DNA of 64,000 bases. Source: Chloroflexota bacterium (GTDB taxonomy: Bacteria > Chloroflexota > JAHJIN01). Positions 43,486 to 62,716 of this stretch are shown piece after piece. Under the pieces are notes generated by a model. It searched no databases. It saw nothing but the letters and a program-made list of their open reading frames with translations, and was not told where the DNA came from. Every line of letters begins with the position of its first letter. Positions within the stretch are counted from its first letter, which is position 1. The stretch covers positions 46,880 to 110,879 of the forward strand of contig JAHJIN010000185.1 of assembly GCA_018823415.1 (NCBI GenBank), written 5' to 3'. Both the position numbers and the translations under genes were made by a program.

Positions 43486-44778
43486 ATGAAAAAGCAAGTT
43501 GTTTTCGCGATTGTTGGCGTACTGGTAGTGATAAGCATGCTGGCCGCGCAGTGCCCGTCGGGGCCGGCTTCCCCAACGGAGGTGCCGCAACCGACGACAG
43601 CACCTCAACCCACCAAGGCCGCCGAGCCCACCAAGGCCGTCGAACCTACCACAGTTCCCGAAGGTCCGCCCCTCAAGATCGGGCTGCTGCGCCCGGTGAG
43701 TGCTGGCCTGGTCATCTATGGCGAGATGGAAGAACGCGGGTTCCAGTTGGGCCTTGACTATGCCACCAATGGCACCGGCATGGTGGCCGGCCGCAAGATC
43801 GAGGTCATCATCAAGGACACCGAAGGCAAGCCAGACGTAGGCGTGAGCCGTGCTCGCGAACTCGTCGAAAAAGATGGCTGCGAGATCCTGGTCGGGTCTT
43901 GCTCCAGCGCCGTGACCCTGGCCATGATGGAAGTGGCCAAAGAGAACAAGACCATCCTGATGGTGCCCGTGGCAGCCGCGGACCAAATCTCTGGCGAGAT
44001 GTTCAACGAGTACACCTTCCGCACCAGCTCCTCGGCGGCACAGGACGCCCTGGCCGGCGCCAAGTACGCCGCCCGCTCCCTGGGTAAAAAGTTCGTGGGC
44101 CTGGCCCCGGACTATTCCTGGGGGCAGGACCAGATCAAGGTCTGGAAAGAGATCGTGGAACAGGAAGGCGGCGAGTTCGTGGCCGAGGTCTATGCCCCGG
44201 CCGATACCACCGAGTTCACCCCTTACTTCCAAAAGTGCCTGGACAGCGGCGCCGAAGTGCTGTTCGTGGCCTGGGCCGGCGCTGGCGGCGTGCAACTCTT
44301 TAACCAGTTGCAGGAGCAAAAGATAACGGAAAAGCTCCAGCTCACCACCGGCATCGTGGACAATGCCACCTTTGCGGCCCTGGGCACTGCCCTGGTGGGC
44401 AACAAGGGCATGATCAAGTACTACTACGAGTTCCCCAAGACCAAGGAGAACGACTGGCTGGTGAAGGAGCACATGGCCCGCTACCAGGTGCCACCGGACC
44501 TCTTTACCGATGTCAGTTTTGCCTCCGCGCAAGCCCTGGTCATGGCCCTGGAAAAGACCAGCGGCAGCACCAAGGCCGAGGACCTGATCAAGGTCCTGGA
44601 AGGCATGAGTTGGCCCGCGCCCAAGGGCACGTTCACCATCCGGGCCGCAGACCATGCTTGCCTCCAGCCCATGTACACGGCCACGGTCGTCATGGAAGGC
44701 GACAAGCCGGTCATCAAGCTGGTGGCCGAGATGTCAGCAGAGGACTGCGCTCCCAAGATCACGGCACCCGCTCGGTAG
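43486..44778 (+). CDS. ABC transporter substrate-binding lipoprotein (Leu/Ile/Val-binding family)
   Basis: Signal plus lipobox (MLAAQC), Pro/Thr linker, then a Peripla_BP_6-like body. Confidence 0.8.
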   Translation: MKKQVVFAIVGVLVVISMLAAQCPSGPASPTEVPQPTTAPQPTKAAEPTKAVEPTTVPEGPPLKIGLLRPVSAGLVIYGEMEERGFQLGLDYATNGTGMVAGRKIEVIIKDTEGKPDVGVSRARELVEKDGCEILVGSCSSAVTLAMMEVAKENKTILMVPVAAADQISGEMFNEYTFRTSSSAAQDALAGAKYAARSLGKKFVGLAPDYSWGQDQIKVWKEIVEQEGGEFVAEVYAPADTTEFTPYFQKCLDSGAEVLFVAWAGAGGVQLFNQLQEQKITEKLQLTTGIVDNATFAALGTALVGNKGMIKYYYEFPKTKENDWLVKEHMARYQVPPDLFTDVSFASAQALVMALEKTSGSTKAEDLIKVLEGMSWPAPKGTFTIRAADHACLQPMYTATVVMEGDKPVIKLVAEMSAEDCAPKITAPAR

Positions 44779-44804
44779 ACAAGCAGATCAGTAACAAGGG
44801 GATC

Positions 44805-44837
44805 AGCCTTGCGAAGGCCTAAAGCCTTCGCAAGGCT
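44805..44837 (+). repeat. REP-like palindrome (AGCCTTGCGAAGG family), possible intra-operon attenuator or mRNA stabiliser
   Basis: agccttgcgaaggc-ctaaa-gccttcgcaaggct. No T-run. Confidence 0.65.
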
Positions 44838-44880
44838 CTCCCTCTCTACGTTTTACGCATCACGCAACGGAGGACGCCGC

Positions 44881-45690
44881 ATGACAGGGAATGGCATCAT
44901 TCTAGAAACGCGTCATTTGCGGAAGGACTTTCAGGCCCTGCGCGCCGTGGACGACGTGAGTATTCAGGTTCGGCAGGGCACCTTCCACTCTATCATCGGG
45001 CCGAACGGGGCCGGCAAGACCACGTTGTTCAACCTGCTCAGCGGCACCCTCAAGCCTTCGGAAGGCGAGGTCTTGTTCAAAGGCCAAGACATCACCCGGT
45101 TCTCGGATACCCGGCGCTCGCACCTGGGCATCGGTCGGTCGTTCCAGATCACCAATATCTTTCCCAACCTGACGGTGTTGGAGAACGTGCGCATCGCCAC
45201 CCAGTCCCGGGGCCATGATAGCCTGAAGATCTGGATGCACTATGGGCGCTATCGCCAGTATGAAGAGCGTGCGCGCGAGATTCTGGCCGAGGTGGGGCTG
45301 GCCGGGAGGGAATTGCAGATCGCCGGGCTGCTGCCCCACGGCGACCAGCGCAAGCTCGAGATTGCCATCCTGATGGCCACCGAGCCGGAACTGTTGCTCT
45401 TGGACGAGCCCACTGCCGGCATCAGCCGCGAAGAGGTCCCGGCTATCATGGAAGTCATCGGCCGCATCAAGGCGCGCAGCGACAAGACCATCATGCTGGT
45501 GGAGCACAAGATGGACATCGTGATGGGTACCTCTGACGTCATCACGGTGATGCACCTGGGCAACGTCATCGCCGAGGGCACGCCAGCCGAGATCGCCGGC
45601 AACGAGACGGTGCAAAACGCCTACCTGGGCGGGCTGTACAAGGACGCCATGCGGGAAGCGCTGGCTGCCGACGGGCGCGAGGGGGAATGA
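44881..45690 (+). CDS. livG: branched-chain amino acid-type ABC transporter ATPase
   Basis: GPNGAGKTT, LPHGDQRKLEIA, LLLLDEPTAG. Confidence 0.85.
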   Translation: MTGNGIILETRHLRKDFQALRAVDDVSIQVRQGTFHSIIGPNGAGKTTLFNLLSGTLKPSEGEVLFKGQDITRFSDTRRSHLGIGRSFQITNIFPNLTVLENVRIATQSRGHDSLKIWMHYGRYRQYEERAREILAEVGLAGRELQIAGLLPHGDQRKLEIAILMATEPELLLLDEPTAGISREEVPAIMEVIGRIKARSDKTIMLVEHKMDIVMGTSDVITVMHLGNVIAEGTPAEIAGNETVQNAYLGGLYKDAMREALAADGREGE

Positions 45691-46394
45691 TGGACGCGAT
45701 ACTGGAACTCCAAGACGTCAACACGTACATCGGCCAGTTCCACATCCTGGAAGGCGTTTCGCTGTCCGTGCCTGGCGGTGCGGTGACGGTGATACTGGGA
45801 CGTAACGGGGCCGGCAAGACCACCACGCTCCGCACCATCATGGGCCTCACGCCGCCGCGCACCGGCCGCGTCGTCCTGGCCGGGCAAGAGGTTCAGGGCA
45901 AAGCCCCCTACGACATCGCCAAGCTGGGGATCGGCTATGTGCCGGAGCACCGGGGCATCTTTGCCGACCTGTCGGTGGAGGAAAACTTGAAGCTGGCCGA
46001 GCGCAAAAAGGGCGACCTGGAACGCAAGGCCGACTTGATCTTTGACTTATTCCCCGACCTCAAACGCCTCATCAAGCTGGGCGGTCGTAACCTGTCTGGT
46101 GGGCAGCAGCAGATGCTGGCCGTGGCCCGGGCTCTGGTGCCAGACAACAAGCTGCTCCTCATCGACGAGCCGACCAAGGGTCTGGCCCCGGTGGTGGTGG
46201 AAGCTGTCATGGAAGCCATCCACCAGTTGCGCAAGACCCTCACCGTACTGCTGGTGGAGCAGAACTATTTTGTGGCCTCGGGCGTCGGCGAGTACTATAC
46301 CATCATCGACGTGGGCAAGACGGTGAGCGCCGGCGAGATGGCGGAATTAAGGCGCCACCCCGAGATCGTGGAGCGGTACCTGGGGGCTACGTGA
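45687..46394 (+). CDS. livF: branched-chain amino acid-type ABC transporter ATPase
   Basis: GRNGAGKTT, LSGGQQQML, LLLIDEPT. ATGA overlap with livG. Confidence 0.85.
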   Translation: MMDAILELQDVNTYIGQFHILEGVSLSVPGGAVTVILGRNGAGKTTTLRTIMGLTPPRTGRVVLAGQEVQGKAPYDIAKLGIGYVPEHRGIFADLSVEENLKLAERKKGDLERKADLIFDLFPDLKRLIKLGGRNLSGGQQQMLAVARALVPDNKLLLIDEPTKGLAPVVVEAVMEAIHQLRKTLTVLLVEQNYFVASGVGEYYTIIDVGKTVSAGEMAELRRHPEIVERYLGAT

Positions 46395-46449
46395 GACATC
46401 GTGCGTCAAACGTCACTCATCGCGCATGACGCATGACGGAGGTAGAAAC

Positions 46450-47430
46450 ATGCCTATCGAAGACCTATTGGCCCGCATCATCAACATCACCCTTCAGGGA
46501 TTGACCATGGGGATGCTGTTCTTTCTCATCGCGTCCGGGCTGTCGCTGATTTTTGGGTTGATGGACGTGCTAAACTTTGCCCACGGATCACTGTTCATGA
46601 TCGGTTCCTATGTGGCGCTGACCACGTTCTGGCTCCTGGGCGGCTATCCGCTGGAATCCATCCAGGCCCAGCAACTGGGTGTCCTGGGGTTCAACACGGC
46701 CCCGGTGCTCATCGCCGACTCGAATCTGCGGTTCCTCATCGCCGTGATCACCGGCACCACGGCGGGACTTGTCGTGGGCACGCTCATGGAGTGGGGGCTG
46801 ATCCGCCCCCTGTACAAGCGCCCCATCTTTCAGATCCTGTTGACCCTGGGCATGGTCTATGTCCTCGCCGAGATCGTCAAGCTCATCTGGGGGCCGGCCC
46901 CGTTGGGCATGGCCAAACCAGAGCTGTTGACCGGCACGGTGGACATCCTCGGCCGGGCGTTCCCCATCTATAACATCTTTATCATCCTGTTGGGATTCGT
47001 GGTCATGGCCGTGGTCTATACGATCCTGCGGCGCAGTCGCATTGGGATCATTATCCGGGCCGGGGTAGAAGATAGCGAGATGGTGCAAGCCCTGGGGATC
47101 AATGTGCGGCGGGTGTTCACCGGGGTCTTTGCCCTGGGCGCCGGGCTGGCGGCCCTGGGCGGCGCGGCCGCGGTGCCCTTCCTGGGTGGCGCGAACCCGG
47201 ATCAGGGCATGGCCTTTCAGTTGAGCGCCTTTGTGGTGGTGGTCATTGGCGGGATGGGCAGCTTTCCCGGGGCATTTGTGGGCGCCCTGCTGGTGGGCCT
47301 GGCCCGCTCCTTTGCCGACTACCAATTGTCGCCCATCATCGCCCAGGGCATTGTGGTGGGCATGATGGCCCTGGTGTTGTTGATCCGGCCGCAGGGTCTA
47401 TTTGGCAGAAAGCAGGAGGGAGGGCACTGA
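46450..47430 (+). CDS. livH: branched-chain amino acid-type ABC transporter permease
   Basis: LivH-like TM protein (...LNFAHGSLFMIGSY...). Confidence 0.8.
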   Translation: MPIEDLLARIINITLQGLTMGMLFFLIASGLSLIFGLMDVLNFAHGSLFMIGSYVALTTFWLLGGYPLESIQAQQLGVLGFNTAPVLIADSNLRFLIAVITGTTAGLVVGTLMEWGLIRPLYKRPIFQILLTLGMVYVLAEIVKLIWGPAPLGMAKPELLTGTVDILGRAFPIYNIFIILLGFVVMAVVYTILRRSRIGIIIRAGVEDSEMVQALGINVRRVFTGVFALGAGLAALGGAAAVPFLGGANPDQGMAFQLSAFVVVVIGGMGSFPGAFVGALLVGLARSFADYQLSPIIAQGIVVGMMALVLLIRPQGLFGRKQEGGH

Positions 47431-48455
47431 TGAACTGGTTGAAAAGCTTTGTCAAGGACAACTGGGGTTGGTTTCTGGTTATTGCCCTTCTCGCCTCGCT
47501 GCCGGTCTTTTTGGCCAAGTTTGAGCTGGGGTTGCTGATCCAGGTCTTTGTGCTGGCTATCTTTGCCCTGAGCTATGACCTGCTCATGGGCTACGCGGGC
47601 ATCCTGAGCTTTGGTCACGCGCTATTCTTTGGGATGGGCGCTTATACGGTAGCTATCCTACTCAAGGGCCTGAAAAACGCCGAAGTGTTCGGGCAAACCG
47701 TGACCATCGAGCCGGTGCCGCTGCCGATCGTGCTGCTCATCGTGATTGCCATTGGCGCGACCCTGGGGGCACTGCTACAGGTGGTCTCGATCCGCGTAAA
47801 AGGCGTCTATTTCGCCATGATCACGCTGGCCTTTGCCGAGATGGCCTTTATCCTCAGCGCATCCACAGAGCTACGGCGCATCACCGGCGGCGACGAGGGC
47901 CTGCACGGCGTGCCCATCCCTGACATCATCAACCCCACCGCAGAGCGCACGACGTTTTATTTCCTGGCGTTGGGGTTCATGATCCTGATGTATGTTCTGG
48001 CCCGGCGGCTGGTGAACTCGCCCACCGGCAAGGTGCTGGCCGCCATCCGCGAGAACGAGGGCCGGGCCGCCGCCATCGGCTACAACGTCTTTGTCTACAG
48101 GCTGGTGATCCTGATGGTCTCTGGCGTGTTTGCCTCGCTGTGCGGCGCGATGTACATCATGTACTTTCGCAGCGCCACGCCGGACCTGTTGGGCGTGAGC
48201 CGCACCATTGACGCGCTGCTCATGACCATCATCGGCGGCATCGGCACGCTGTCTGGACCCATGCTGGGCGCAGCCGTGCAGCGCCTGGCTAGCCATAGCC
48301 TGGCCGATCTGCCGCTCTTTGAGAAAAGCTGGCCCCTGCTGCTGGGCGTCGGCTATATCCTGCTGGTGCTGTTCTTCCCCTATGGCATCGTGGGGACGTG
48401 GCGGCAGCGCCGGGGCTGGGTGATCCAGCAGTGGCACAAGATCGTAGGCAAGTAG
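47430..48455 (+). CDS. livM: branched-chain amino acid-type ABC transporter permease
   Basis: LivM-like (...GYAGILSFGHALFFGMGAY...). TGATG overlap with livH. Confidence 0.8.
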   Translation: MNWLKSFVKDNWGWFLVIALLASLPVFLAKFELGLLIQVFVLAIFALSYDLLMGYAGILSFGHALFFGMGAYTVAILLKGLKNAEVFGQTVTIEPVPLPIVLLIVIAIGATLGALLQVVSIRVKGVYFAMITLAFAEMAFILSASTELRRITGGDEGLHGVPIPDIINPTAERTTFYFLALGFMILMYVLARRLVNSPTGKVLAAIRENEGRAAAIGYNVFVYRLVILMVSGVFASLCGAMYIMYFRSATPDLLGVSRTIDALLMTIIGGIGTLSGPMLGAAVQRLASHSLADLPLFEKSWPLLLGVGYILLVLFFPYGIVGTWRQRRGWVIQQWHKIVGK

Positions 48456-48591: not shown

Positions 48592-49170
48592 ATGAGCCTG
48601 AGCGACACGTACCAGCGTATCCTGACCGACCCAACGCCGGCCGACCTGTGGCAACTGCAAGGTGATCTCCTTGTCATCGGCACCGAGGCAGCCCGGCAAG
48701 CCCGGCAGGTGACTTGTGATTTCTGCGGTTATTTGCGTGATCTGGCGAGCAAGGTCTCGTCGCGCCGGCACAGCCGGCTGGGTGCCATCCTCGCCACAGC
48801 TTCTGTGACCAGCGTGAGCCTCCAGGAACTCGTCGATTCACAGGCGGCGCTCCTGGAACGCCTGCTGGCTACCGGGGGCACTGCGTTGCTCGAGATTGGC
48901 TCTGCCTATGAGCATCTTCAGGCCTGGGAGCGTGAGACTGAATTGGTGCATTGTGACGTGGCCTGGGCGCTCTATGGCGAGCTGTGGGACATCTCTATGA
49001 CCATGCTGCCGGACCTCCCGGCGGATACGCGGCGGGCGCATCTGGATGGTTTGCTCGGTCCAGTCGTGGCGCCAGACACCCCCACGGGGGTCAAGGTCGT
49101 GCTGCTGATCAAGCTATTCCAGGTGGTGCTGGCGGTGCGGCTGGCGCCGGTGTTGGCCGGGGAGTCGTGA
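48592..49170 (+). CDS. hypothetical protein
   Basis: ATG after GGAGGGAAAAG. 192 aa, no family recognised, hydrophobic C-terminal segment. Confidence 0.55.
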   Translation: MSLSDTYQRILTDPTPADLWQLQGDLLVIGTEAARQARQVTCDFCGYLRDLASKVSSRRHSRLGAILATASVTSVSLQELVDSQAALLERLLATGGTALLEIGSAYEHLQAWERETELVHCDVAWALYGELWDISMTMLPDLPADTRRAHLDGLLGPVVAPDTPTGVKVVLLIKLFQVVLAVRLAPVLAGES

Positions 49171-49282
49171 TCGCGTTTCGCCCGGCTCAAATCCCCGGGA
49201 CCCCGATGGCGCTGGACAGCCAGCAGCGGATCATTTTTGTTAGTAGATTAGTACCAATTCCGGCCCTAGAGCCCAGATCGCA

Positions 49283-49311
49283 TTGACTTTGTGACAGCGG
49301 TCTGTTAGAAT
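49283..49311 (+). promoter_or_regulatory. sigma70 promoter driving the riboswitch leader
   Basis: TTGACT (49283-88), 17 nt, TAGAAT (49306-11). Confidence 0.6.
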
Positions 49312-49374
49312 GAGAGTGCAGGAAGAGAGTCCCACCACCACGTTAACTACCGCAAGTTGATCAAAAACCGTTCT

Positions 49375-49462
49375 AGTTGTTGTGTTCAAGGGCAAACCCG
49401 TAGCGATACGGGGACGCAAAGCCACGGATCTGATGATGGTCAGATGGCCGGGTTGCCGCAAC
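49375..49462 (+). promoter_or_regulatory. candidate c-di-GMP-I (GEMM-I) riboswitch aptamer
   Basis: AAGGGCAAACC-CGUA-GCGA-UACG-GGGACGCAAAGCC...GGCCGGGUUGCCG. This matches the conserved GEMM-I core, including a GNRA-capped P1b-like hairpin. Confidence 0.75.
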
Positions 49463-49483
49463 GATGATCGTTAGGGTGATAGA

Positions 49484-49525
49484 CCCGTCGTTGGGCAGAC
49501 AAGCTGGCCCGGCGATGGGTTTTTT
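49484..49525 (+). terminator. intrinsic terminator (riboswitch expression platform)
   Basis: cccgtcgttgggc / gcccggcgatggg (13 bp including G-U pairs), 10-nt loop, then TTTTTT. The RBS and ATG lie downstream. Confidence 0.7.
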
Positions 49526-49544
49526 GTTTGGGGGGAGGTGTGTG

Positions 49545-51380
49545 ATGAAGGAGCGCTCGTTTTTGCTAAAAGCCTTGTCCATAATCGCGCTCGTGGGACT
49601 GTTGGCTGTTGTGCCCGGCCTGACCGCAGCCACACCAGCCGGTTCGTACCAGGCGATGATGGACCCGGCATTGATGGGTGCGTTGGACAAGGGCGGAGCC
49701 GCAGTAGGCGTCATTGTGCAGAGTGACGCCGGGGCAGCGGCAGCGGGCGCTGCCGTGGTCCGCGCTGGCGGCCAGGTGACGGCCGAGTTGTGGATCATCA
49801 ATAGCGTGTCGGCTCGGGTAGACGGCGTGGCCCTGGCGCGTTTGCAGGCCGACCCGGCCGTCTCGCGCATCTCGCGAGACATCGGGGTCAAGGTCAGTGG
49901 AGGACCGGGGGGGGGCAACGACGATGAATTCGAATTGCTCAACTTGCCGGTCCAGGACGTAGATGCGGCCTGGCTGCACGATGAGGGCATCCAGGGGCGG
50001 AACGTGGGCGTGGCGGTGTTGGATACGGGCATCGCCTCCAAGCCTCACATCAAGCTCCAGGGTCAGGCGGCTGTGGACTTTGTGGAGCCAGCGTATAGCG
50101 GTCAGTTCCGTGACCCCCACGGGCATGGCACACTGATGGCCGGCATCATCGGGAGCAACTGGAAAGACCCGCGCCAGGACGTGCGCATGGGTCTGGCGCC
50201 CAAGGCCAAGCTGGTTTCCGTGCGCGTGCTGGACGCCAACGGCCAGGGCTCTTATTCGACGGCGATCCAGGGCCTGCAGTGGATATTGGAGCACAAGGCC
50301 CAGTTCAACATCCGCGTGGTGAACATGTCCCTGCACGCCGAAGTGGTGTGCCCATACTTTTTCGACGCGCTAGATCAGGCGGCAGAGGTGGTGTGGCGCA
50401 ACGGGATCGTAGTGGTGGCGGCGGCCGGGAACGCCGGCCCTGATCCCGCGACCATTACCGCTCCTGGCAATGACCCGTACATCATCACTGCGGGGGCTAT
50501 TCACACCAAGGATACCCCCGGCGACCGATCAGACGACTATATCGCGCCGTTTTCCTCCAGTGGTCCCACCCTGGACAACTTTGTCAAACCCGATATTGTG
50601 GCCCCGGGCGTGCGCATTTGTTCCCTTTTGGCTTCGCCCGACTGCACCATTGCCCAGCAATACCCGGAGAACATTCTGGATTCGCAGCAGCGGCTGTTCA
50701 AGATCAGCGGCACTTCGGCCTCCGCAGCAGTGGTTTCGGGCATCGTGGCGCTGATGGTAGACGAACATCCGGGTATCACCCCAGACGTGGTCAAGTATCG
50801 GCTGATGGCAAATGCCTGGGTGGGCGGCAACGAAGAGTTGGGCCTGTACTACAGCCCACTGCGCCAGGGTTGCGGCTATGTGAATGCCAAGGCAGCGGTC
50901 CAGTCTACCCTGGACGGTACGGCCAATGGCGGCCTGGTCCCAGACCAATATTGTGTTGGCTATGCCCTGGACGCTTTGTTTGATGGTTTGACCTTTATCG
51001 ACGGCCAGACCTGGACCGGCTCTGAATTGTGCTGGTTCACCGGCCAGACCTGGACTGGCAATCTCCTCTGGATCGACGGTCAAACCTGGACTGGCGGGCA
51101 GACGTGGACTGGTGGTCAAACCTGGACTGGCGGACAGACCTGGACCGGCGGCGTGACGTGGTTCTCCGGCCAGACCTGGACTGGTGGACAGACCTGGACT
51201 GGCGGGCAGACCTGGACCGGCGGCCAGACCTGGACTGGCGGTCAGACGTGGACTGGTGGACAGACCTGGACCGGGGGACAGACCTGGACTGGTGGACAGA
51301 CTTGGAGTGGTGGACAAACCTGGAGTGGCGGACAGACCTGGAGCGGCGGCGTCACCTTTGTGAGTTTCGTGAACCTCTGA
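49545..51380 (+). CDS. secreted subtilisin-family (S8) protease with a C-terminal GQTWTGG heptad-repeat domain
   Basis: Signal peptide MKERSFLLKALSIIALVGLLAVVPGLTAA. Catalytic D (VAVLDTGI), H (HGHGT) and S (SGTSASAA). About 18 heptads at the C-terminus. Confidence 0.85.
   Translation: MKERSFLLKALSIIALVGLLAVVPGLTAATPAGSYQAMMDPALMGALDKGGAAVGVIVQSDAGAAAAGAAVVRAGGQVTAELWIINSVSARVDGVALARLQADPAVSRISRDIGVKVSGGPGGGNDDEFELLNLPVQDVDAAWLHDEGIQGRNVGVAVLDTGIASKPHIKLQGQAAVDFVEPAYSGQFRDPHGHGTLMAGIIGSNWKDPRQDVRMGLAPKAKLVSVRVLDANGQGSYSTAIQGLQWILEHKAQFNIRVVNMSLHAEVVCPYFFDALDQAAEVVWRNGIVVVAAAGNAGPDPATITAPGNDPYIITAGAIHTKDTPGDRSDDYIAPFSSSGPTLDNFVKPDIVAPGVRICSLLASPDCTIAQQYPENILDSQQRLFKISGTSASAAVVSGIVALMVDEHPGITPDVVKYRLMANAWVGGNEELGLYYSPLRQGCGYVNAKAAVQSTLDGTANGGLVPDQYCVGYALDALFDGLTFIDGQTWTGSELCWFTGQTWTGNLLWIDGQTWTGGQTWTGGQTWTGGQTWTGGVTWFSGQTWTGGQTWTGGQTWTGGQTWTGGQTWTGGQTWTGGQTWTGGQTWSGGQTWSGGQTWSGGVTFVSFVNL
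51003..51350 (+). repeat. coding 21-bp tandem repeat (GQTW[TS]GG heptads)
   Basis: 16 GQTW[TS]G units plus 2 variants (GVTWFS, GVTFVS). Copies differ mainly at synonymous positions. Confidence 0.9.
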
Positions 51381-51462: not shown

Positions 51463-53145
51463 CTAGCGATGGCCTTTGCGCGCCCGGCGCCGGTCGCGGA
51501 CGGCGTGCACGTCCTGCAAGGTGTTGGCCCCGGCCGGGCTCTTGTCGTCGCGGACCCGGGCGATGCGGGCCAGGCGCAAGGCGACACCGGCGGGGTAGCT
51601 GGGGCTATTCTGCACCTCGTCAAAGAGCACCTCTACCACCAGCCGGGGCTCCACGTAGACGGTGCTGCCGGCGCGATGCCGCTCCAGGGCCAGCAATCGC
51701 GCCGTAAGGGCCTGGAACTCGGCATCGGTGGGGCCTTTGAACGTCTTGCCCACCACCATGTACTCGCCGGTGTCCTCGTCGCGCGCGGCCAGGTGATAGT
51801 TGGAAAGCCAACCGTGGCGCCGGCCATAGCCCCAGTCCGCCGCTGCGATCACCAGGTCTAGCGTCTCCACGTGTTTGAGCTTGAGCCAGTGCCGGCCGCG
51901 CGCGCCCGGCGTATAGGCGCTACTCAATCGCTTGGCCATGACCCCCTCGTGGCCGGCCTCGTAGGCGGCTTGGGCAAAGGCCTCGGCCTTGGTCACGTCG
52001 GTGGGCATCACCTGGGTTGCCAGGGTCAGTGGCGGGGCGATGACCCCGGCCAGGGCGGCGCGCCGGGCCTCGTAGGGCTGGTCCAGGAGCGATTGCCCAT
52101 CGAGCCACAGCAGGTCAAAGGCGTGGAGATGCAGGGGGATCTGCCGGGCCAGCCGGTCCACGTCGTGGACGCGGCGGAACCGGCGCATGAGGTCCTGAAA
52201 CGGCAGGGGGCGCCCCTCGACGCCGGTCGCCACGGCCTCGCCCTCCAGGATGGCGTCCTGGGCACGCAGGCCCTCGCGTACCGCCGCCACCAGGTCCGGT
52301 ACACTGGCCGTCACGTCGGCCAGTTGGCGTGAATAGACGCGCACCTCGTCGCCTCCGCTTTGCGCGTGCACCTGCACCCGCGCCCCATCGAACTTGAACT
52401 CCAGGGCCACATCCTCGATCTTGGCGAACACGTCGGCCATGTCATCGGCTGTCTGGGCCAGCATGGGCTGGAGGGGCCGGAACAGGCGCACGGTGGCGGC
52501 TTGCAGGGCCGGCACACCCCCGGTCAAGGCGACCCCGGCCACCTCGGCGATGTCGCCCCAGAGCTGGTGGGCCCGGCGCACGGTTTTTGGTGGCGCGTCG
52601 GCGGCCCGGGCCACAGCGTCCAGCATGATTCCTTCGCTGACGCCGTGGCGCATCTCCCCGAACACGTTCTTGACGACATACTTGGCCTCGGCCGGGCTGG
52701 CGCGCTCCAGTAAGCCACGGATCAGGTCGGCCTTGCGCGTGCGAGACCCCTTGCCGGTCGCGTCGGCCATCGCCTCGAATGCCTGATAGACCTCCAGGGT
52801 GGTCAGCGGGGGCGGTGTGACCGGCTCAGCGCGGGCTGTCTCAAACAGCATTCGCACGGCCTCACCGCCGTCCACCGCCTCGGACCAGATGCGGTCGCGC
52901 TGGTCCTCGGTGGGGGCCGTGAGCTCGCATACCACGGCGCTGGCCTGCTTCCAGCTCACGTTCAGGGTGCGCGCGTCATAGGCCGGGAAGGGCTGGCCCA
53001 GGATCAAGCGCACGGCCGGGGCTACCTCGTCCGGCGCGAGCCGGCGCAGGAAATCGGCCAGAAGCGCGGCCTTTTCCAGGCGGGCGCTGGTGCGTTCCAG
53101 CGCTTCGCCCAGGTCGGCCAGATCGGCAAACCGGGTATCCATCAC
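51463..53145 (-). CDS. ATP-dependent DNA ligase (three-domain Lig1/LigB-like)
   Basis: Motif I EFKFDGARVQVH, plus further adenylation and OB-fold regions. Confidence 0.85.
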   Translation of the reverse strand: MMDTRFADLADLGEALERTSARLEKAALLADFLRRLAPDEVAPAVRLILGQPFPAYDARTLNVSWKQASAVVCELTAPTEDQRDRIWSEAVDGGEAVRMLFETARAEPVTPPPLTTLEVYQAFEAMADATGKGSRTRKADLIRGLLERASPAEAKYVVKNVFGEMRHGVSEGIMLDAVARAADAPPKTVRRAHQLWGDIAEVAGVALTGGVPALQAATVRLFRPLQPMLAQTADDMADVFAKIEDVALEFKFDGARVQVHAQSGGDEVRVYSRQLADVTASVPDLVAAVREGLRAQDAILEGEAVATGVEGRPLPFQDLMRRFRRVHDVDRLARQIPLHLHAFDLLWLDGQSLLDQPYEARRAALAGVIAPPLTLATQVMPTDVTKAEAFAQAAYEAGHEGVMAKRLSSAYTPGARGRHWLKLKHVETLDLVIAAADWGYGRRHGWLSNYHLAARDEDTGEYMVVGKTFKGPTDAEFQALTARLLALERHRAGSTVYVEPRLVVEVLFDEVQNSPSYPAGVALRLARIARVRDDKSPAGANTLQDVHAVRDRRRARKGHR

Positions 53146-57259: not shown

Positions 57260-60200
57260 TTATGTGTGATGGTCTAGTACCTGGCGGACCTTGGACAGCA
57301 ACTCGTCCAGGTCGTACGGTTTGGGCAAAAAGCCGCGCGCGCCGGCGTTCAGCATGGCCCGGGCCCGGTCGTCCTCGGCATAGCCGCTGGAGATGAGCAC
57401 TGCCACCTCGGGATCGATCTCTTGCAGGTGGCGGAACGTATCGGCGCCGCTCAGGCGGGGCAAGCCCATGTCTAGTATCACCAGGTGAACGTGTGGCCGG
57501 TGTTTCTGATAGGTTTCCAGGGCCTGCCAGCCATCGGCGGCGGTCAGCACGGTATAACCGGCGCTTTCCAGGGCTTGCTGGAGCAACGTGCGAATAAAGT
57601 CCTCGTCGTCCACCACCAGGATCGTCTCCACGCCGCCAGCGCTCTCGATAGGCGCAGCGATGGGCGCCGAGGGTTGCTCCTGGCCGGCTGGCAAATAGAC
57701 GGTGAACGTGGTGCCGCGCCCCAGGGCGCTATTGACCTGGATGATTCCGCCATGGCTGCGCACGATGCCATAGACCATCGCCAGGCCCAGGCCCGAGTGC
57801 GGCTTGCCGGGCTGGCCTTTTTTGGTGGTGAAAAACGGCTCGAATATGCGCTGCTGGGTTTCCTGGTCCATGCCCACGCCAGTATCGGTCACTCTGATCC
57901 GCACATAGGCGCCGGGTTCCAGGCCCAACGCTGCGGGAGAGCCCTTTTCACCCAGGCTCGTGTTCTCGGTCTCGACGATCAGGTAACCGCCAGTGGGCAT
58001 GGCGTCGCAGGCATTCAGGCAGAGGTTGAGTAGCATCTGGTGGAGTTGGCCGGCATCGCCTTCCACCACCGCCAGGTTGGCAGCCAGGCGCGTCTCCAGG
58101 GTGATGGCCTTGTCTACCGTGCGCGCCAGCAGGCGCAGCACTTCGCGGGTCAGGTCGTCAAGGTCGGTGGGACGCACCTCGTAGCGACCGCCCCGGGCAA
58201 AAGCCAGCAACTGGTTGGTCAGTTCGGCGCCGCGCCGGGCCGACTGGATGATGGTGTCCACCGAGGTGCGCAACGGGCTATCGGCCGGCAGGTCCCGCTC
58301 CATGAGCGAGGCAAAGCCCAGGATGCCGCCCAGCAGGTTGTTAAAGTCGTGGGCGATGCCGCCAGCCAGCGTGCCGATGGCTTCCATTTTCTGGGCCTGG
58401 CGCAATTGTTCTTCCAGCCGGCGGCGCTCGCTAATGTCGCGGACCAGGGCCAGCACCAATTGGTCACCGTTCAGCCGGAGCACCGAGGTGCTGACCTCCA
58501 CCGGGACTCGGCTCCCGTCCTTGCGTACGTTTTCGGCTTCCAGGCGCAGGCCATCATTTTGCAGTTCGCGCTCGATGAGCTGCGGGATCTGGGTTTCTAT
58601 CAGCGGTGGGAGCAGGTCGCTCACGCTCATGGTCAAGAGCTCATCACGGCTATAGCCCAACATCTCGCAGGCCCGGGCGTTCACGTCCAGGATCCGGCCA
58701 TCCAACGTTTCCAGGAACACGGCATCGTTGGCTTGCTCAAAGAGCGCGCGATAGCGTGTCTCGGACGAGCGCAAGTTCTGGATCAGACGCGCGTTTTCGA
58801 TGACGGTTGCCAGGTGGCTGGCGAGCGTGGAGACCAGGTGCAAATCTGCTTCGGTGAACGCGTTTGACTGATGGCTTTCGATGTTTAGCGCACCGATAAC
58901 GCGCGAGCGGGTGCTCAGCGGCACGCACAACTCGGAGCGGGTTTGGGGGTCGTACGGGTAGTATCGTTCGTCTTGCCTGACGTCTGGCAACAGGACGGCT
59001 TGGTCGTTTTGCACTACCCAGCTCATGACACCCTGGTCAACGGGCCACGGTTGCATATGAGGCACCTGATCGGGAAAGGCGGTAGAAGCCAGGCAGACCA
59101 GGTAGTTGGTGTCGGGATCCAGCAGCATCACGACCACATCGTCGGCATTCAGTACCCGATGCAAGCTCTGCGCTGCGTGTTCCAGGATTTGGTCCAGGTG
59201 GACAGATGTGGTGGCGGCCACGATCACGTCGTATAGGGTGCTCAGGTCAGCTGCGCGCTGCTGGGTCTCTTGGAACAGCCAGGCGTTGTCGATGGCCACC
59301 GCTGCCCGGCTGGCAAATAACATCAACAAGTCCTGGTGTTCGGTGGTAAAGGCCTGGTAGCTGGTGACATTGTCTAACGACAGGGTGCCGATGGCCTGAT
59401 CCCGCACGATCAGTGGCACGCTGAGGAGCGATTTCTCTTCATAGGCCTGGGCCGAGTCTACCGATTTGAACCGTGGGTCGGCATGGACATTGCCCACGAT
59501 GACCGGTTCGCGGTGGGCAAACACCCACCCGGCGAATCCTTCCCCGGGTTTCAGCGTCACGGCGACCAGCAGGTCTGGGTCATAGCCCACGCCGGTCTGT
59601 ACCCGCAACTCGCCGCGCTTTTCGTCCCACAGGTGCAAGGTGCCCTTTTCGGCCGGGCCAATGGCGGTGATGGCTGTCTCGATCACTCGCTGCAACACCT
59701 GATCCAGGTCCAGGGTCGAGCTCATGTACCGGGCAGTAGCCATGAGCGAACTCTGTTCGTGCAGACGGCGCTGGTTGTTCTGGAACAGACGAGCGTTTTC
59801 GAGGGCGATGGTTGCCAGGTCGGCCAGGGTCGCGAGCAGAGTCATGTCGGCCGGGTCGAGCGTGCGCGGCTGGCGCCACCAGAGCAAGATCCCGCCCAGC
59901 ACCTGGTCCCCGCTGAGCATGGGGGCGGCCGTTACGCTTACATAGCCTTCGTCCAGGAGCAGGGCCTTGTATCCATAGTTCGGGGTGGCCCGCACGTCAG
60001 CCAGGTGTACTGGTTTTCGGCTATCGATCGCCTGGCCAATGGTACTCGTTTGATCAATTTGGACATGCACAGAGCGAAGGGCATCCTGAAACGCCGGGCG
60101 CAGGCCGTGGGCCACGTTTACTACCATGCTTGTGCCATTGGCCTCCCACTCGCAGATGCCAGCGGCATCGGCGGCCAACAAGCCCACGGCCCGGGTGGCA

Positions 60201-62716
60201 ATCGTCTCCAGGATCTGGGCCGGGTCTAGTGAGGCTAGGATGGCTTGACCGATCTGGTTCAGGGCAGTCAGTTGCTCATTGCGCCGTTGCGTGGCCTCTT
60301 CCATTGCCTTGCGGGCCGAGATGTCGGTCACGGCACTGAGCGCGCCGGCATAGGTGGTGCCCTCGAACACGGGCCGGGCGCTGACGATGACCGGGATGCG
60401 GCGCTGGTCCGGGCCTTGCAGGACCGTTTCATAGCGACTGGTGATGCCCCGAGACCGCTTGCCGGTTTCTTCATGCACCTCGGGCTGATGCTCCGGGGGC
60501 ACAATGACAGACCAGTGCTGCCCCAACAATGCGGTGGCCGAACAACCCAGCAGCGACTCGGTGGCCGGGTTCACAAATGTGATATGCCCCTCGGCATCTT
60601 CGACAATGATCCCCTCTTCAACACCCTGGACAATGCTCTCGTTAAATTCCTTTAGCTGGCGCAGTTCGGCCTCCACACGCTGGCGTTGGATGGCGGTCCC
60701 AAACATCCCAGACGCCGCGTGCAGGGCCTCGACCTCGGCCGGTGACCAGATGCGCTCGTGCACACAGTCGTCAAAACCGATGAACCCCCACCACCGGGCG
60801 TCCACAAAGACCGGCACGGCGATCATGGAACGGACCCCCTGTGGTTCCAGGACGGCACGCTCGGATGCCGGGAACTCGCGAATCAGACCGTGGACCACCT
60901 CGTTGCGACTCAATATTTGCCGGTGCCGCTCCATTCCCCCTTTTACCCACGGAAAGTTCTGTGCGGCACGAGTCCCCAGCAGCGAGGTTGTGCCGGCGGC
61001 GGTCCATTCGTACCGTTCGTTGGTCAACAAGATGCCATCAGCGGTTTCGTGATTCTCAAAGACATAGGCCCGGCTGACATTTATGGCCTCGCCCAGGCGT
61101 GCCAGGGCTGCCTGAATGCTGACGTCGAAATCGCCAGGGGCCAGAAACTGCTCGGCGGCGAAAGAGACCGCATTGAGGATGGTATCTCGACTCTGCAAGG
61201 CCAGCTCTGCTTCTTTGCGCGCGGTGATGTCGCTGGCAATGCCGGTCAATCCCATCATCTGGTTGTCACGCATCACCGGGCGGCTGACTGTGCGGGTCCA
61301 GATGTAGCGCCCATCCTGGGCGCGCAGGCGGAATTCGAGCGGCTGGGGAGTATCTCCTTGCAATACATGGTCGAGGCGCTCCAACACAGTGGGCAAATCA
61401 TCAGGGTGAATGAACTCGACGAAACGTCGGCCTGTTACCTCGGCGGCTTGATACCCCCCCAGGTGCTCGATGGACGGGCTGCAATACGCGATCAAGCCTT
61501 CTGTATCCAGCTCAAAGATCAGGTCGTGCACGTTTTCTACCAGGTGCCGATAGCGGGCCTCGGATTCCTGGGCTCGCTCGTAGATCTGGGCGTTCTGGAT
61601 GGCGCTGGCGATGGCCCCGGCCACCTGCTGTAACAGGCCCATGTGGTGCTCGGAAAAGGCGGCCGGCTGCGTGCTGGCCAGATTCAAGGCCCCAATGGGC
61701 TGGTCGCTGACCACGAGAGGCACGTTGATCCGAGAGCGCAGGCCGGCTTCGTAGAGCAATCGTTCCCCGACAAAATCTGTCTCGGTGCTCAGATCGGGGG
61801 TCAGGTGCGGCTGGCCGGCCAGGACATCTGGGCCGGCGGCCGTGGCTGTCAGCGGCATCGTGACGCCCGCGCCTAACGGGGCATCTGGCTGTCCCAGTGC
61901 AGCCAGCGCGTGCATGGTGAAACTGGGCGGGTCTGTATTGAGCAAGGCAATGCTGGCTCGGTCAAAGGGCACCAGGCGGCCCAGTTCCCGGGCCACCGCG
62001 CCAAACACGTCCTTGACGTTCCGGCTGGCATTGAGGGCCTGGATGATGACATTGATCGCGCCGGCCTCACGCTCCCGGCGTGCCAGTTGTTCGTAGAGCT
62101 GGGCATTCTCCAACGCCGCCGAGACCAGATCGGCAAAGGCAGTGATGGCCGGAACATCGGCCGGGACCAGGGTCCTGGCGATGACGGACAGGACGCCGGT
62201 TACCTCTCCATCAACGGCTAACGGGGCCGTGATGCTGCGCCCAAAACTCGCCGCCTGGATGATCGGTCGGGCCGGCCGACGCAGAGGTTTCGGCAAGAGT
62301 TCCAGGATACCCGACATCGGGTCTGGATCGAGGATCGTCTGCCCCGTTTCGACTACCTGCCGGAAAATATTCCCCCACTCGACCGGGAACGTATAGCCGA
62401 TCAGCCGGCCCCCCAGCAGCTTTTGGAACGCAGCCAGCGTGGAGGAGCCAAGATTCACGTGACCGACGACAAGCTGGCGCTTGTCCTGGTTCAGCAAGAG
62501 AACGGCACTGTATAGGCTCAGCGATTCCAGTTCCCGGCTCACTGCCTCGAACACGGCATCAGGCGAGTGCGCGGCTCGCTCGCGAAGCGCGGCAGCCGCG
62601 GCCGCATTGAGCGCGCGCAGCATGTCTCCGGATCGCCGGGGGGCAGTCTCGGATACCTGGGTCGCGTCGGGTTGGTCATTCATGGTCGATACTCCGTCGT
62701 TCACCTGGCGCATCAT
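57260..62716 (-). CDS. giant multi-GAF/PAS hybrid sensor histidine kinase with C-terminal receiver
   Basis: Several GAF and PAS blocks. H-box GGIAHDFNNLL, HATPase GLGLAMV, receiver VILDMGLPRLSG. ATG 62716 forms an ATGA overlap with the upstream stop. The track start 62755 (GTG) is an alternative. Confidence 0.85.
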   Translation of the reverse strand: MMRQVNDGVSTMNDQPDATQVSETAPRRSGDMLRALNAAAAAALRERAAHSPDAVFEAVSRELESLSLYSAVLLLNQDKRQLVVGHVNLGSSTLAAFQKLLGGRLIGYTFPVEWGNIFRQVVETGQTILDPDPMSGILELLPKPLRRPARPIIQAASFGRSITAPLAVDGEVTGVLSVIARTLVPADVPAITAFADLVSAALENAQLYEQLARREREAGAINVIIQALNASRNVKDVFGAVARELGRLVPFDRASIALLNTDPPSFTMHALAALGQPDAPLGAGVTMPLTATAAGPDVLAGQPHLTPDLSTETDFVGERLLYEAGLRSRINVPLVVSDQPIGALNLASTQPAAFSEHHMGLLQQVAGAIASAIQNAQIYERAQESEARYRHLVENVHDLIFELDTEGLIAYCSPSIEHLGGYQAAEVTGRRFVEFIHPDDLPTVLERLDHVLQGDTPQPLEFRLRAQDGRYIWTRTVSRPVMRDNQMMGLTGIASDITARKEAELALQSRDTILNAVSFAAEQFLAPGDFDVSIQAALARLGEAINVSRAYVFENHETADGILLTNERYEWTAAGTTSLLGTRAAQNFPWVKGGMERHRQILSRNEVVHGLIREFPASERAVLEPQGVRSMIAVPVFVDARWWGFIGFDDCVHERIWSPAEVEALHAASGMFGTAIQRQRVEAELRQLKEFNESIVQGVEEGIIVEDAEGHITFVNPATESLLGCSATALLGQHWSVIVPPEHQPEVHEETGKRSRGITSRYETVLQGPDQRRIPVIVSARPVFEGTTYAGALSAVTDISARKAMEEATQRRNEQLTALNQIGQAILASLDPAQILETIATRAVGLLAADAAGICEWEANGTSMVVNVAHGLRPAFQDALRSVHVQIDQTSTIGQAIDSRKPVHLADVRATPNYGYKALLLDEGYVSVTAAPMLSGDQVLGGILLWWRQPRTLDPADMTLLATLADLATIALENARLFQNNQRRLHEQSSLMATARYMSSTLDLDQVLQRVIETAITAIGPAEKGTLHLWDEKRGELRVQTGVGYDPDLLVAVTLKPGEGFAGWVFAHREPVIVGNVHADPRFKSVDSAQAYEEKSLLSVPLIVRDQAIGTLSLDNVTSYQAFTTEHQDLLMLFASRAAVAIDNAWLFQETQQRAADLSTLYDVIVAATTSVHLDQILEHAAQSLHRVLNADDVVVMLLDPDTNYLVCLASTAFPDQVPHMQPWPVDQGVMSWVVQNDQAVLLPDVRQDERYYPYDPQTRSELCVPLSTRSRVIGALNIESHQSNAFTEADLHLVSTLASHLATVIENARLIQNLRSSETRYRALFEQANDAVFLETLDGRILDVNARACEMLGYSRDELLTMSVSDLLPPLIETQIPQLIERELQNDGLRLEAENVRKDGSRVPVEVSTSVLRLNGDQLVLALVRDISERRRLEEQLRQAQKMEAIGTLAGGIAHDFNNLLGGILGFASLMERDLPADSPLRTSVDTIIQSARRGAELTNQLLAFARGGRYEVRPTDLDDLTREVLRLLARTVDKAITLETRLAANLAVVEGDAGQLHQMLLNLCLNACDAMPTGGYLIVETENTSLGEKGSPAALGLEPGAYVRIRVTDTGVGMDQETQQRIFEPFFTTKKGQPGKPHSGLGLAMVYGIVRSHGGIIQVNSALGRGTTFTVYLPAGQEQPSAPIAAPIESAGGVETILVVDDEDFIRTLLQQALESAGYTVLTAADGWQALETYQKHRPHVHLVILDMGLPRLSGADTFRHLQEIDPEVAVLISSGYAEDDRARAMLNAGARGFLPKPYDLDELLSKVRQVLDHHT

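Follow-up and report, generated by a model that had tools for sequence, protein, structure and literature searches.

The gene for a secreted S8 protease in Chloroflexota DNA is preceded by what we judge, with a probability of about 0.8, to be a canonical class I c-di-GMP riboswitch that belongs to a receptor-less subtype with a GYGA tetraloop and acts on the gene as a transcriptional OFF switch. It lies in a stretch of 64 kb, the whole of which was analysed and is referred to here as the window, and all of its parts are on the + strand. The element is a known type of regulator and not a new kind of element. The ligand that it binds, the direction in which it regulates in vivo and its physiological role are things that we infer.

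The regulated gene (49545-51380, +) encodes a 611 aa subtilisin-like S8 peptidase of the 'AprX' type (PF00082, E 6e-45). Its N-terminus carries a signal-like segment, which predicts secretion, the catalytic residues D160/H194/S391 are invariant among the aligned homologues, and the C-terminal part contains (GGQTWT)n repeats encoded by a tandem array of period 18 at 51084-51342. An earlier note on this DNA had described the product as a secreted, repeat-bearing S8 protease, and these findings agree with it. The gene is monocistronic and the next gene, a DNA ligase (51463-53145, -), is convergent. When the long ORFs of the window were searched with crude regular expressions, no GGDEF or HD-GYP motif was found and the EAL pattern gave short-string matches only; Pfam detected no GGDEF or EAL domain in 16 window ORFs.

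The promoter proposed in the earlier note, TTGACT-17-TAGAAT at 49283-49311 (+), is of the sigma-70 type, matches at 10 of 12 positions and has the TG of an extended -10 element. No other such site occurs in 48800-49800, and shuffled sequences average 0.2. We infer that transcription starts near 49318, and the 5' leader that precedes the aptamer (49312-49375, +) would contribute about 57 nt of transcript; a small leader hairpin, GUUAACU...AGUUGAU, is present at about 49342-49362 in both the MFE and the centroid structure. The RBS, GGGGGGAGG at 49530-38, and the ATG at 49545 (together 49530-49547, +) were also placed correctly by the note.

The sole Rfam match above gathering score in the 64 kb window is a riboswitch at 49381-49461 (+). 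It was reported as RF03167 (c-di-GMP-I-GGC) at 61.6 bits (gathering score 59; E 4.1e-12), and covers model positions 1-80 of 80. The best-scoring model is RF03167 and not RF01051, the family named in the earlier note. A second family of clan CL00126 also reached its own gathering score and was masked by the competition; most plausibly this is RF01051, the threshold of which (35) is far under that of RF03167, and the RF01051 score of the aptamer is bounded by E-value scaling at below about 71 bits. RF03167 was still top, at 55.5 bits, when the core 49386-49456 was searched alone, and an E-value-threshold search of 49250-49600 likewise masked the RF01051 score behind it. Our own covariance model, R1, which was built with the window sequence included, gave the window aptamer 69 bits. 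Weak Rfam matches to folP RNA (20-23 bits, where the gathering score is 99), to CRISPR-DR20 and to two fungal RNAs were rejected as noise. The core quoted in the earlier note, AAGGGCAAACC / CGUA-GCGA-UACG / GGGACGCAAAGCC / GGCCGGGUUGCCG, is present as quoted and is backed by the Rfam match.

Two hairpins with GC:GC closing pairs are seen in both the Rfam structure line and the MFE computed for a transcript that ends at 49470. In the first (49397-49412, +) a tetraloop of the GNRA type, GCGA at 49403-06, tops a stem of 6 bp, CCCGUA/UACGGG, and the second, P2 (49420-49454, +), has the strands AGCC-A-CGGAUCUGAU / GUCAGAU-GG-CCGGGUU, with the equivalent of G83 lying in the GG bulge at 49446-47; the Rfam alignment and the folds agree on both. 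In the same MFE the full aptamer is closed by a P1 of 9 bp, the 5' strand of which, GUUGUUGUG (49376-49384, +), pairs with 49457-49465. This helix was missing from the earlier note, which had otherwise called the aptamer correctly. No 11-nt tetraloop receptor (CUAA...UAUG) was seen in the window P2, either in the Rfam alignment or in an alignment of eight aptamers. Judged by its sequence, the window aptamer is canonical GEMM-I, of a subtype with a GYGA tetraloop (here GCGA) and without the 11-nt receptor.

We used the RF03167 and RF01051 consensus alignments to locate the predicted ligand contacts, with numbering that follows PMC4744006 (Vc1 C36/A39 vs Vc2 A47). Vc2 G20, A47 and C92 correspond to G49391, A49418 and C49456 (all +). 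G49391 is unpaired and lies just 5' of G49392-C49393, which pair with G49416-C49417; these in turn sit within 49415-49418 (+), which runs from C49415, the C44 equivalent, to A49418, the intercalating base. C49456 is in the 2-nt junction G49455-C49456 (',,' columns, consensus GC). In Vc2, G20 makes a Hoogsteen contact to G-alpha and C92 a Watson-Crick contact to G-beta (PMC4744006, PMC5888326). Both bases of the predicted inter-helix pair C44-G83 are present, as C49415 and G49447. G49391 and C49456 are invariant in alignment A2, which comprises eight protease-linked aptamers. Taken together, the clan match (E 4e-12) and the contact bases of the RF01051 consensus bear out the call of a GEMM-I (c-di-GMP-I) aptamer in the earlier note.

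The stems also covary. When pairs were counted on the Rfam architecture, on which model R1 was also based, 96% of cells are paired across the eight protease-linked aptamers and 10 pairs show double changes, a result that none of 500 shuffles reached, while controls in which the structure was slid dropped to 21-46% paired. The covariation supports both hairpins, and the stem of the first has double changes in four of its six pairs. RNAalifold returned for these eight aptamers a structure in which GGC was wrongly joined to GCC over the entire aptamer, and it was rejected.

Downstream of the aptamer is an intrinsic terminator (49483-49525, +), with a stem of 49483-96/49507-20 plus 2 bp, a loop at about 49499-503 and a U-tract at 49520-25. 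Fourteen contiguous pairs, three of them G-U, are followed by two more across a 1-nt bulge, so that the stem amounts to 14-16 bp; the hairpin alone has a folding energy of -28.3 kcal/mol and is followed by UUUUUU. The hairpin and U6 described in the earlier note are therefore real, and its stem of 13 bp was too short. A scan for promoter and terminator motifs caught only the apical part of this terminator.

The strand that links aptamer and terminator is GCCGCAACGAU (49455-49465, +), which comprises the junction and the 3' strand of P1, and which can pair either with the 5' strand of P1 or with the terminator 5' arm at 49487-96. When growing transcripts were folded, the MFE contained the aptamer with P1 at 49470. 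At 49497 it opened P1 and built a 10-bp antiterminator, 49455-65/49487-96. A comparison of energies gave -48.3 kcal/mol for this alternative vs -43.7 kcal/mol for the enforced aptamer. The antiterminator was still the MFE at 49514, and the terminator formed at full length, where the energies of the leader were -64.5 kcal/mol for aptamer plus terminator, -60.4 for the antiterminator and -57.8 for an enforced GCCGGG:CCCGGC helix. This last pairing, between the P2 3' strand GCCGGG (49447-49452, +) and CCCGGC at 49508-13, had been put forward in the earlier note. It exists and belongs to the antiterminator, but as an outer extension only, the core being 49455-65/49487-96: in the unconstrained MFE at 49514 it is nested around that inner helix. 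The 6-nt match is not beyond chance by itself, as the terminator segment, when shuffled, equals it in 316 of 2000 cases (16%), and we retain it because of its nesting within the longer antiterminator and because the close relative L082 has it too. The full-length unconstrained MFE includes non-native pairing across the aptamer, and the whole leader folds modestly better than shuffles (z = -1.95); the folding used is thermodynamic, and tertiary contacts and kinetics are outside its scope.

We propose the following mechanism. After transcription from the 49283-49311 promoter, the aptamer with its 9-bp P1 (49376-49465) would fold first. If c-di-GMP is bound, through contacts to G49391, A49418 and C49456, P1 and the junction would be locked; 49483-96 would be left free to pair with 49507-20, the terminator would form before U6 and the transcript would end ahead of the RBS. 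If the aptamer is unbound, the junction and P1 3' strand (49455-65) would take the terminator 5' arm 49487-96 once it is made, and the P2 3' strand (49447-52) would then capture 49508-13, the early part of the terminator 3' arm. The nested antiterminator would allow RNA polymerase to read through into the protease gene, with the result that the protease would be made at low c-di-GMP and switched off at high c-di-GMP.

GEMM-I riboswitches exist in both polarities, and the direction given here rests on secondary-structure energetics only, so that a c-di-GMP aptamer with an ON platform, or one that acts mainly through translation or RNA stability, has to be considered. We regard this as unlikely. 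One and the same strand closes P1, bears the C92 equivalent and sequesters the terminator 5' arm; therefore a ligand-stabilised P1 should free the terminator. In the folds of L082 and of five distant homologues, as in those of the window, the computed antiterminator is mutually exclusive with both aptamer and terminator. The RBS lies 3' of the U-tract, and the folds do not pair it with parts of the aptamer. The OFF logic of the earlier note, which invoked a ligand-free antiterminator, is thus favoured by the competition of P1, antiterminator and terminator in these folds.

Conservation of the window's own expression platform was followed in one close relative, L082, a locus with a protease 70% identical to that of the window. 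It can be seen that L082 retains P1, the antiterminator and the terminator by means of linked compensatory changes. The P1 pair 49379/49462 changes from G-C to A-U, and a linked triple change at 49463/49489/49514 converts G/C/G to A/U/A. The L082 fold shows an analogous GCCGG:CCGGC helix, there is an equivalent terminator stem with U6, and GGGGAGGTGTG and the ATG are conserved.

The top Rfam label could be taken at face value, in which case the element would be a true c-di-GMP-I-GGC variant, the binding site of which would differ in its chemistry and might accept a ligand that is not c-di-GMP. RF03167 is indeed the top clan member, just over its gathering score (61.6 vs 59), and the window resembles it in its best covariance score, in its short receptor-less P2 and in having P1 modelled. 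However, a comparison of the two printed Rfam consensus lines, from which we took the variant-defining position, shows that the sole ligand-contact difference between RF03167 and RF01051 is G vs A right after GACGC, at Vc2 A47. The RF03167 consensus reads ACGC-G-AA at this column (ACGCGAAgCc in the model) and that of RF01051 ACGCAAA; the window has ACGC-A-AA, with A49418 where the variant consensus carries a conserved G. Moreover, five distant homologues with A at the A47 position are also labelled RF03167, while RF01051 gives 81-84 bits to two others that closely resemble them. We therefore conclude that the label results from E-value competition, to which the lack of a receptor in the P2 of the RF03167 model, and not the variant base, probably contributes. 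A genuine variant is therefore very unlikely. Clan competition can evidently label a canonical GEMM-I as c-di-GMP-I-GGC, and when a riboswitch is annotated automatically as a 'variant', the nucleotide that defines the variant should be inspected. Receptor-less forms are reportedly accepted as c-di-GMP-I members, and the missing receptor accordingly does not exclude membership of RF01051.

Another cyclic dinucleotide, such as 3',3'-cGAMP bound by a GEMM-Ib type RNA, is a still weaker candidate for the ligand, and we give it little credence. GEMM-Ib specificity is said to go with A at the G20 position; by this criterion the window, with G49391, does not qualify, and G is kept in 8/8 of the aligned protease-linked aptamers. 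What speaks for cGAMP is that the GEMM-I fold is common to GEMM-Ib RNAs (PMC5888326, PMC7266159) and that Rfam shows no separate GEMM-Ib score for the window aptamer. It is equally hard to credit that the element is a decayed or chance match of no regulatory function, with the terminator attenuating constitutively or ending an upstream transcript, for although the match is only 2.6 bits over the RF03167 gathering score and the tetraloop receptor is missing, its E of 4e-12 was obtained in 64 kb, neither helix is damaged and no contact base is lost, the compensatory changes in L082 keep the element and its switching helices, the element has its own promoter and the receptor-less GYGA subtype is abundant.

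This abundance comes from metagenomes, in which we found at least 120 loci of the receptor-less GYGA subtype. The C92 equivalent is C in 76/76 of the members with a parsable 3' motif. Downstream ORFs, picked by a longest-frame rule, are mostly secreted- or surface-looking as predicted from their N-termini. It is conceivable, if improbable, that these receptor-less GYGA aptamers, which Rfam ranks as RF03167, are a functionally distinct GEMM-I subclass whose ligand selectivity or affinity tuning is unlike that of Vc2-type aptamers, and that in filamentous Chloroflexota they define an undescribed second-messenger regulon of W-repeat secreted subtilases for dispersal or sheath-remodelling.

Of the known systems, the canonical riboswitch that we favour is most readily compared with Vc2 of Vibrio cholerae (RF01051). 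Like Vc2, it has two hairpins closed by P1, GC:GC pairs flanking a GNRA-looped first hairpin, the ACGCAAAGCC core and equivalents of G20, A47, C92 and C44-G83. It differs in that the tetraloop is GCGA and not GAAA, P2 is without the 11-nt receptor and the bulge is GG and not AG, and it departs from RF01051 in that Rfam puts RF03167 first. A functional parallel is found in Clostridioides difficile, where class I c-di-GMP riboswitches are transcriptional OFF switches and one of them controls the secreted protease PPEP-1/ZmpI (CD2830), made at low c-di-GMP (PMC11477304). That enzyme is an M34 Pro-Pro metalloprotease from the Firmicutes, whereas the window, from the Chloroflexota, encodes a serine peptidase of family S8 whose C-terminal repeats are W-rich. 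By this reading the W-repeat S8 protease belongs to the c-di-GMP regulon and is probably produced when c-di-GMP is low, which fits dispersal or free-living cells; for an uncultured bacterium of Anaerolineae-like type this is a usable clue to function.

More distant Chloroflexota proteases were collected by a profile search of genome contigs with a 28-sequence protease alignment; a search of genome contigs with a single protease sequence as query gave no relatives. A GEMM-I aptamer lies just upstream of the gene in 9/80 of these loci (L031, L061, L063, L066, L068, L069, L070, L072 and L078), while the closest genome-derived homologues, L002-L020 (38-46% identity), are without a riboswitch. These nine Anaerolineae/Chloroflexota MAG loci share with the window the 'AprX'-type S8 family, and most of them also the order of aptamer, terminator-like hairpin and RBS, with an aptamer 3' strand complementary to the terminator 5' arm. 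In contrast to the window, they have a GAAA tetraloop and a CUAA/UAUG receptor, their GGCCUGG-type terminator competes with P2 where that of the window competes with P1, and their proteases share only 37-44% identity with that of the window. Seven platforms were read by eye: in each, the hairpin has a GGCCUGG-like 5' arm complementary to the 3' strand of the aptamer, a clear U-tract terminator is present in five of the seven, and an antiterminator was the MFE in 5/5 of the loci that were folded. Several lineages of the Chloroflexota thus have GEMM-I before one protease family, by way of two aptamer subtypes and two antiterminator solutions, and this recurrence suggests that the link has been selected for, which would parallel PPEP-1. 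The distant loci have no long 5' leader comparable to that of the window, and their aptamers begin about 10 nt after the -10 element. By eye, a promoter-like sequence, TTGACT...TAGAAT/TAAAAT/TATACT, precedes the aptamer in L068, L066 and L069.

The leader of the protease gene contains every element that the earlier note had listed between 49283 and 49545 (+). A TTGACT-17-TAGAAT promoter (49283-49311), with 10 of 12 consensus matches and a TG extension, is unique in the surrounding kilobase (shuffle mean 0.2) and is followed by AAGGGCAAACC, the CCCGUA-GCGA-UACGGG hairpin, GACGCAAAGCC and GGCCGGGUUGCCG, then by a hairpin with U6, the RBS GGGGGGAGG (49530-38) and the ATG at 49545. When the whole 64 kb window was searched with Rfam 15 at gathering thresholds, the sole match lay at 49381-49461 (+), full length. 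The proposed c-di-GMP-I assignment held at the level of the clan (CL00126, above gathering score), but the top-ranked family was RF03167 (c-di-GMP-I-GGC; 61.6 bits, E 4.1e-12, gathering score 59) and not RF01051 (c-di-GMP-I, prototype Vc2), and RF03167 kept its rank after the closing helix, P1, was trimmed off. A second, lower-ranked overlapping family of the clan also reached its own gathering score, and two such families were seen at E up to 10. The one passing threshold behind RF03167 is most plausibly RF01051, whose gathering score is 35 bits and whose score on the window must, from bits-to-E scaling, lie below about 71 bits.

A potential explanation for this ranking is that the aptamer is a true GGC variant. 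Among the ligand contacts, a single position separates the two Rfam consensus lines: GACGC-A-AAgCc in RF01051 and GACGC-G-AAgCc in RF03167. The ligand contacts of Vc2 are G20, A47 and C92 (PMC4744006; contact geometry in PMC5888326), and their Vc1 equivalents are G12, A39 and C104; the inter-helix C of Vc1, at 36, precedes A39 by three bases (PMC4744006). This numbering places the distinguishing base at Vc2 A47 and, as read from the two consensus lines, the variant would be defined by a G there. Alignment of the window to the Rfam consensus puts A 49418 (+) at this position, and the canonical contacts are all present on the same strand: G49391, unpaired before the G49392-C49393 pair, corresponds to G20, C49456 within a two-base junction corresponds to C92, and the positions of the inter-helix pair are taken by C49415 and G49447. 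The window thus lacks the base that sets the variant apart, and a true GGC variant was rejected because 49418 is A, not G. A GEMM-Ib (3',3'-cGAMP) type aptamer was rejected because G49391 is a G at the G20 position.

The RF03167 label is also attached to five aptamers of other genomes that carry ACGC-A-AAGC (65-70 bits), and two aptamers very similar to those five score 81-84 bits on RF01051; the label on A-bearing aptamers thus arises from E-value ranking inside the clan. These five, at protease loci L031, L063, L066, L068 and L069, have the canonical A47 equivalent and are labelled c-di-GMP-I-GGC through clan competition. For the window, a further probable reason is the second hairpin of the RF03167 model, short and receptor-less, which fits better than the receptor-containing RF01051 consensus. 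The variant class is probably overcounted by automatic annotation, and Rfam variant labels call for caution. By every sequence test run, the window element appears to belong to the class I c-di-GMP riboswitches and would work like other members of this established regulator type; we infer its ligand, polarity and physiology.

The first hairpin of the aptamer (49397-49412, +) has a GCGA (GNRA) loop, and the second (49420-49454, +) is bulged at 49424 (A) and at 49446-47 (GG) and is without the 11-nt receptor CUAA...UAUG. P1 pairs GUUGUUGUG (49376-84) with CGCAACGAU (49457-65) on the + strand and is longer than Rfam's modelled P1. When eight protease-linked aptamers were aligned on the Rfam architecture, 96% of cells were paired and 10 pairs were doubly compensatory; none of 500 shuffles reached these covariation values, and sliding the partners left 21-46% paired. 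From the inferred start of transcription to P1 there is an extra 5' leader of ~57 nt (49312-49375), with a hairpin near 49342-49362; distant homologous riboswitches lack it, and their aptamers start ~10 nt past the -10.

Downstream, 49483-96 pairs with 49507-20 (+) in a terminator of 14 contiguous pairs (three G-U) plus two across a bulge. Folded alone, this long GC-rich hairpin reaches -28.3 kcal/mol, and UUUUUU (49520-25, +) follows directly. The switch was examined by folding transcripts of growing length and by enforcing structures on the full leader. It can be seen that the minimum free energy fold of a transcript ending at 49470 is the complete aptamer with 9-bp P1. By 49497 P1 is broken, and G49455-U49465 pairs with G49487-C49496 (10 bp, G49458 bulged) at -48.3 kcal/mol, against -43.7 with the aptamer enforced. 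At 49514 this inner helix is extended outward by GCCGGG (49447-52) with CCCGGC (49508-13), at -55.1 kcal/mol, against -54.3 with the aptamer enforced. For the full leader the unconstrained minimum, with the terminator formed, is -67.7 kcal/mol; enforcing aptamer plus terminator gives -64.5, the inner antiterminator helix -60.4, and the GCCGGG:CCCGGC helix of the earlier note by itself -57.8. That pairing is real and is precisely the one that extends the antiterminator at 49514, but alone it is not significant (16% of shuffles equal it); it makes most sense as an outer clamp on a larger antiterminator.

Since the inner antiterminator helix takes in the junction base C49456 and all of the 3' strand of P1, the antiterminator and the ligand-bound aptamer should exclude each other, and c-di-GMP is predicted to promote termination. 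In this modelled OFF switch, bound c-di-GMP would block the antiterminator and favour the terminator. The riboswitch call made from the sequence was correct in substance.

The protein-database entry closest to the protease, P0001 (70% identity), is encoded, with its leader, on a 1.5 kb contig, L082. The aptamer in this leader is of the window's subtype (GUGA loop, no receptor); its terminator has a U6 tract, and its RBS is identical to that of the window. P1 pair 49379/49462 is G-C in the window and A-U in L082, and P1 pair 49378/49463 is U-G and U-A, respectively; antiterminator pair 49463/49489 changes from G-C to A-U and terminator pair 49489/49514 from C-G to U-A. P1, antiterminator and terminator are thus preserved together by a linked three-way change. 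Growing-transcript folds of L082 gave the nested antiterminator of the window, including the outer helix GCCGG:CCGGC.

The regulated gene (49545-51380, +) encodes 611 amino acids with a Peptidase_S8 domain (PF00082, E 6e-45), a hydrophobic, signal-like N-terminus and ~14-17 tandem GGQTWT hexapeptides at residues about 514-600, in agreement with its earlier description as a secreted, repeat-bearing S8 protease. The repeats correspond to a DNA array of 18-bp period (51084-51342, +; 14.4 copies, 80% matches) and are covered by no Pfam or NCBIfam model. W-G-G-rich C-terminal repeats occur throughout the homologous family (alignment consensus WAGGYxx, W and G columns invariant). Organism-named homologues are all Chloroflexota or Anaerolineae MAGs (37-46% identity), and an identical protein is present on a Logan contig (SRR2540949). 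The protease forms a single-gene unit, since the next gene, for a Lig1-type ATP-dependent DNA ligase (51463-53145, -) with N-terminal DNA-binding, adenylation and OB domains, is convergent with it. The protein database contains a great many relatives of this ligase; the few that bear an organism name are Anaerolineae (59-61% identity).

Metagenome contigs scanned for exact matches to a pattern of the GYGA-loop core gave at least 120 loci. Among the matches listed, 116 copies were usable (GCGA 81, GUGA 35), the C92 equivalent was C in all 76 with a parsable 3' motif, and the bulge was AG in 66 and GG, the window's form, in 10. Downstream ORFs, again among the matches listed, were grouped by BLASTP and described by eye from sequence alone: a group of 17 large ORFs, of which several begin with a signal-like segment; a group of 16, some members of which have a pilin-like GFTLIELLVV N-terminal motif; nine secreted proteins of ~200 aa; several groups of small ORFs with signal-like N-termini; and some ORFs with HExxH metalloprotease-like motifs. 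Only L082 among these matches shares the S8 protease. Such a mix of apparently extracellular products is what would be expected of a c-di-GMP regulon. Three contigs, L134 (118 and 1132), L158 (613 and 1392) and L171 (1490 and 3345), carry two aptamers of this subtype ~0.8-1.9 kb apart, each before a separate ORF (507 and 122 aa in L171, small in the other two). These look like c-di-GMP-regulated genes clustered locally.

A protease-alignment scan with one genome per species gave 80 loci, mostly Chloroflexota (Anaerolineae, Ardenticatenaceae, Promineifilaceae and others), and in nine of these a GEMM-I aptamer immediately precedes the protease gene. Rfam found seven of the nine, and our covariance model R1, built from protease-linked aptamers including the window's, found two more. 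These nine have GAAA loops and the CUAA...UAUG receptor, in contrast to the GCGA loop and receptor-less hairpin of the window. Read by eye, the downstream hairpin in seven of seven loci has a GGCCUGG-like 5' arm complementary to GCCAGGCC, the 3' strand of the aptamer. A clear U-tract terminator follows directly in L061, L063, L066, L070 and L078, and in all five the transcript ending after the 5' arm folds with this arm and the aptamer strand paired as an antiterminator; U-tracts are weaker or interrupted in L068, L069 and L031, and L072 is doubtful. Across the protease family the regulatory logic of the window is thus repeated, with another aptamer subtype and other switching sequences. No aptamer was found at the nearest genome-derived relatives of the window protease (L002-L020), so the association is patchy.

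In C. difficile, a class I OFF riboswitch controls the secreted protease PPEP-1/ZmpI, which strips adhesins at low c-di-GMP (PMC11477304). This is the closest functional precedent for the window element, although protease class and phylum differ, as would the substrates. The riboswitch-subtilase link is recurrent in Chloroflexota, and the riboswitch helps to annotate an uncultured lineage.

The window has a G+C content of 64%. No GGDEF motif was found in its long ORFs, and none of the 16 ORFs scanned with Pfam has a GGDEF or EAL domain, though 64 kb is a small sample that says little. A giant hybrid sensor kinase (57260-62755, -; 1831 aa) has five GAF and three PAS domains, a 'diguanylate cyclase-like sensor', HisKA/HATPase and a receiver; no GGDEF domain was found in it. 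A second, much larger S8 peptidase (8962-13083, -; 1373 aa) has PKD and InhA-like MAM domains, and Rfam detected no riboswitch near it. A 192-aa ORF (48592-49170, +), a gene call on the Logan contig, has no Pfam or NCBIfam match; the ABC permease genes flank it on one side and the riboswitch promoter on the other. An 818-aa ORF (37434-39890, +) joins acetyl-CoA hydrolase/transferase domains (residues 4-427) to a periplasmic-binding-protein domain (459-805), an unusual fusion or possibly two genes read as one; downstream of it is a branched-chain-type ABC transporter cluster (about 43486-48455).
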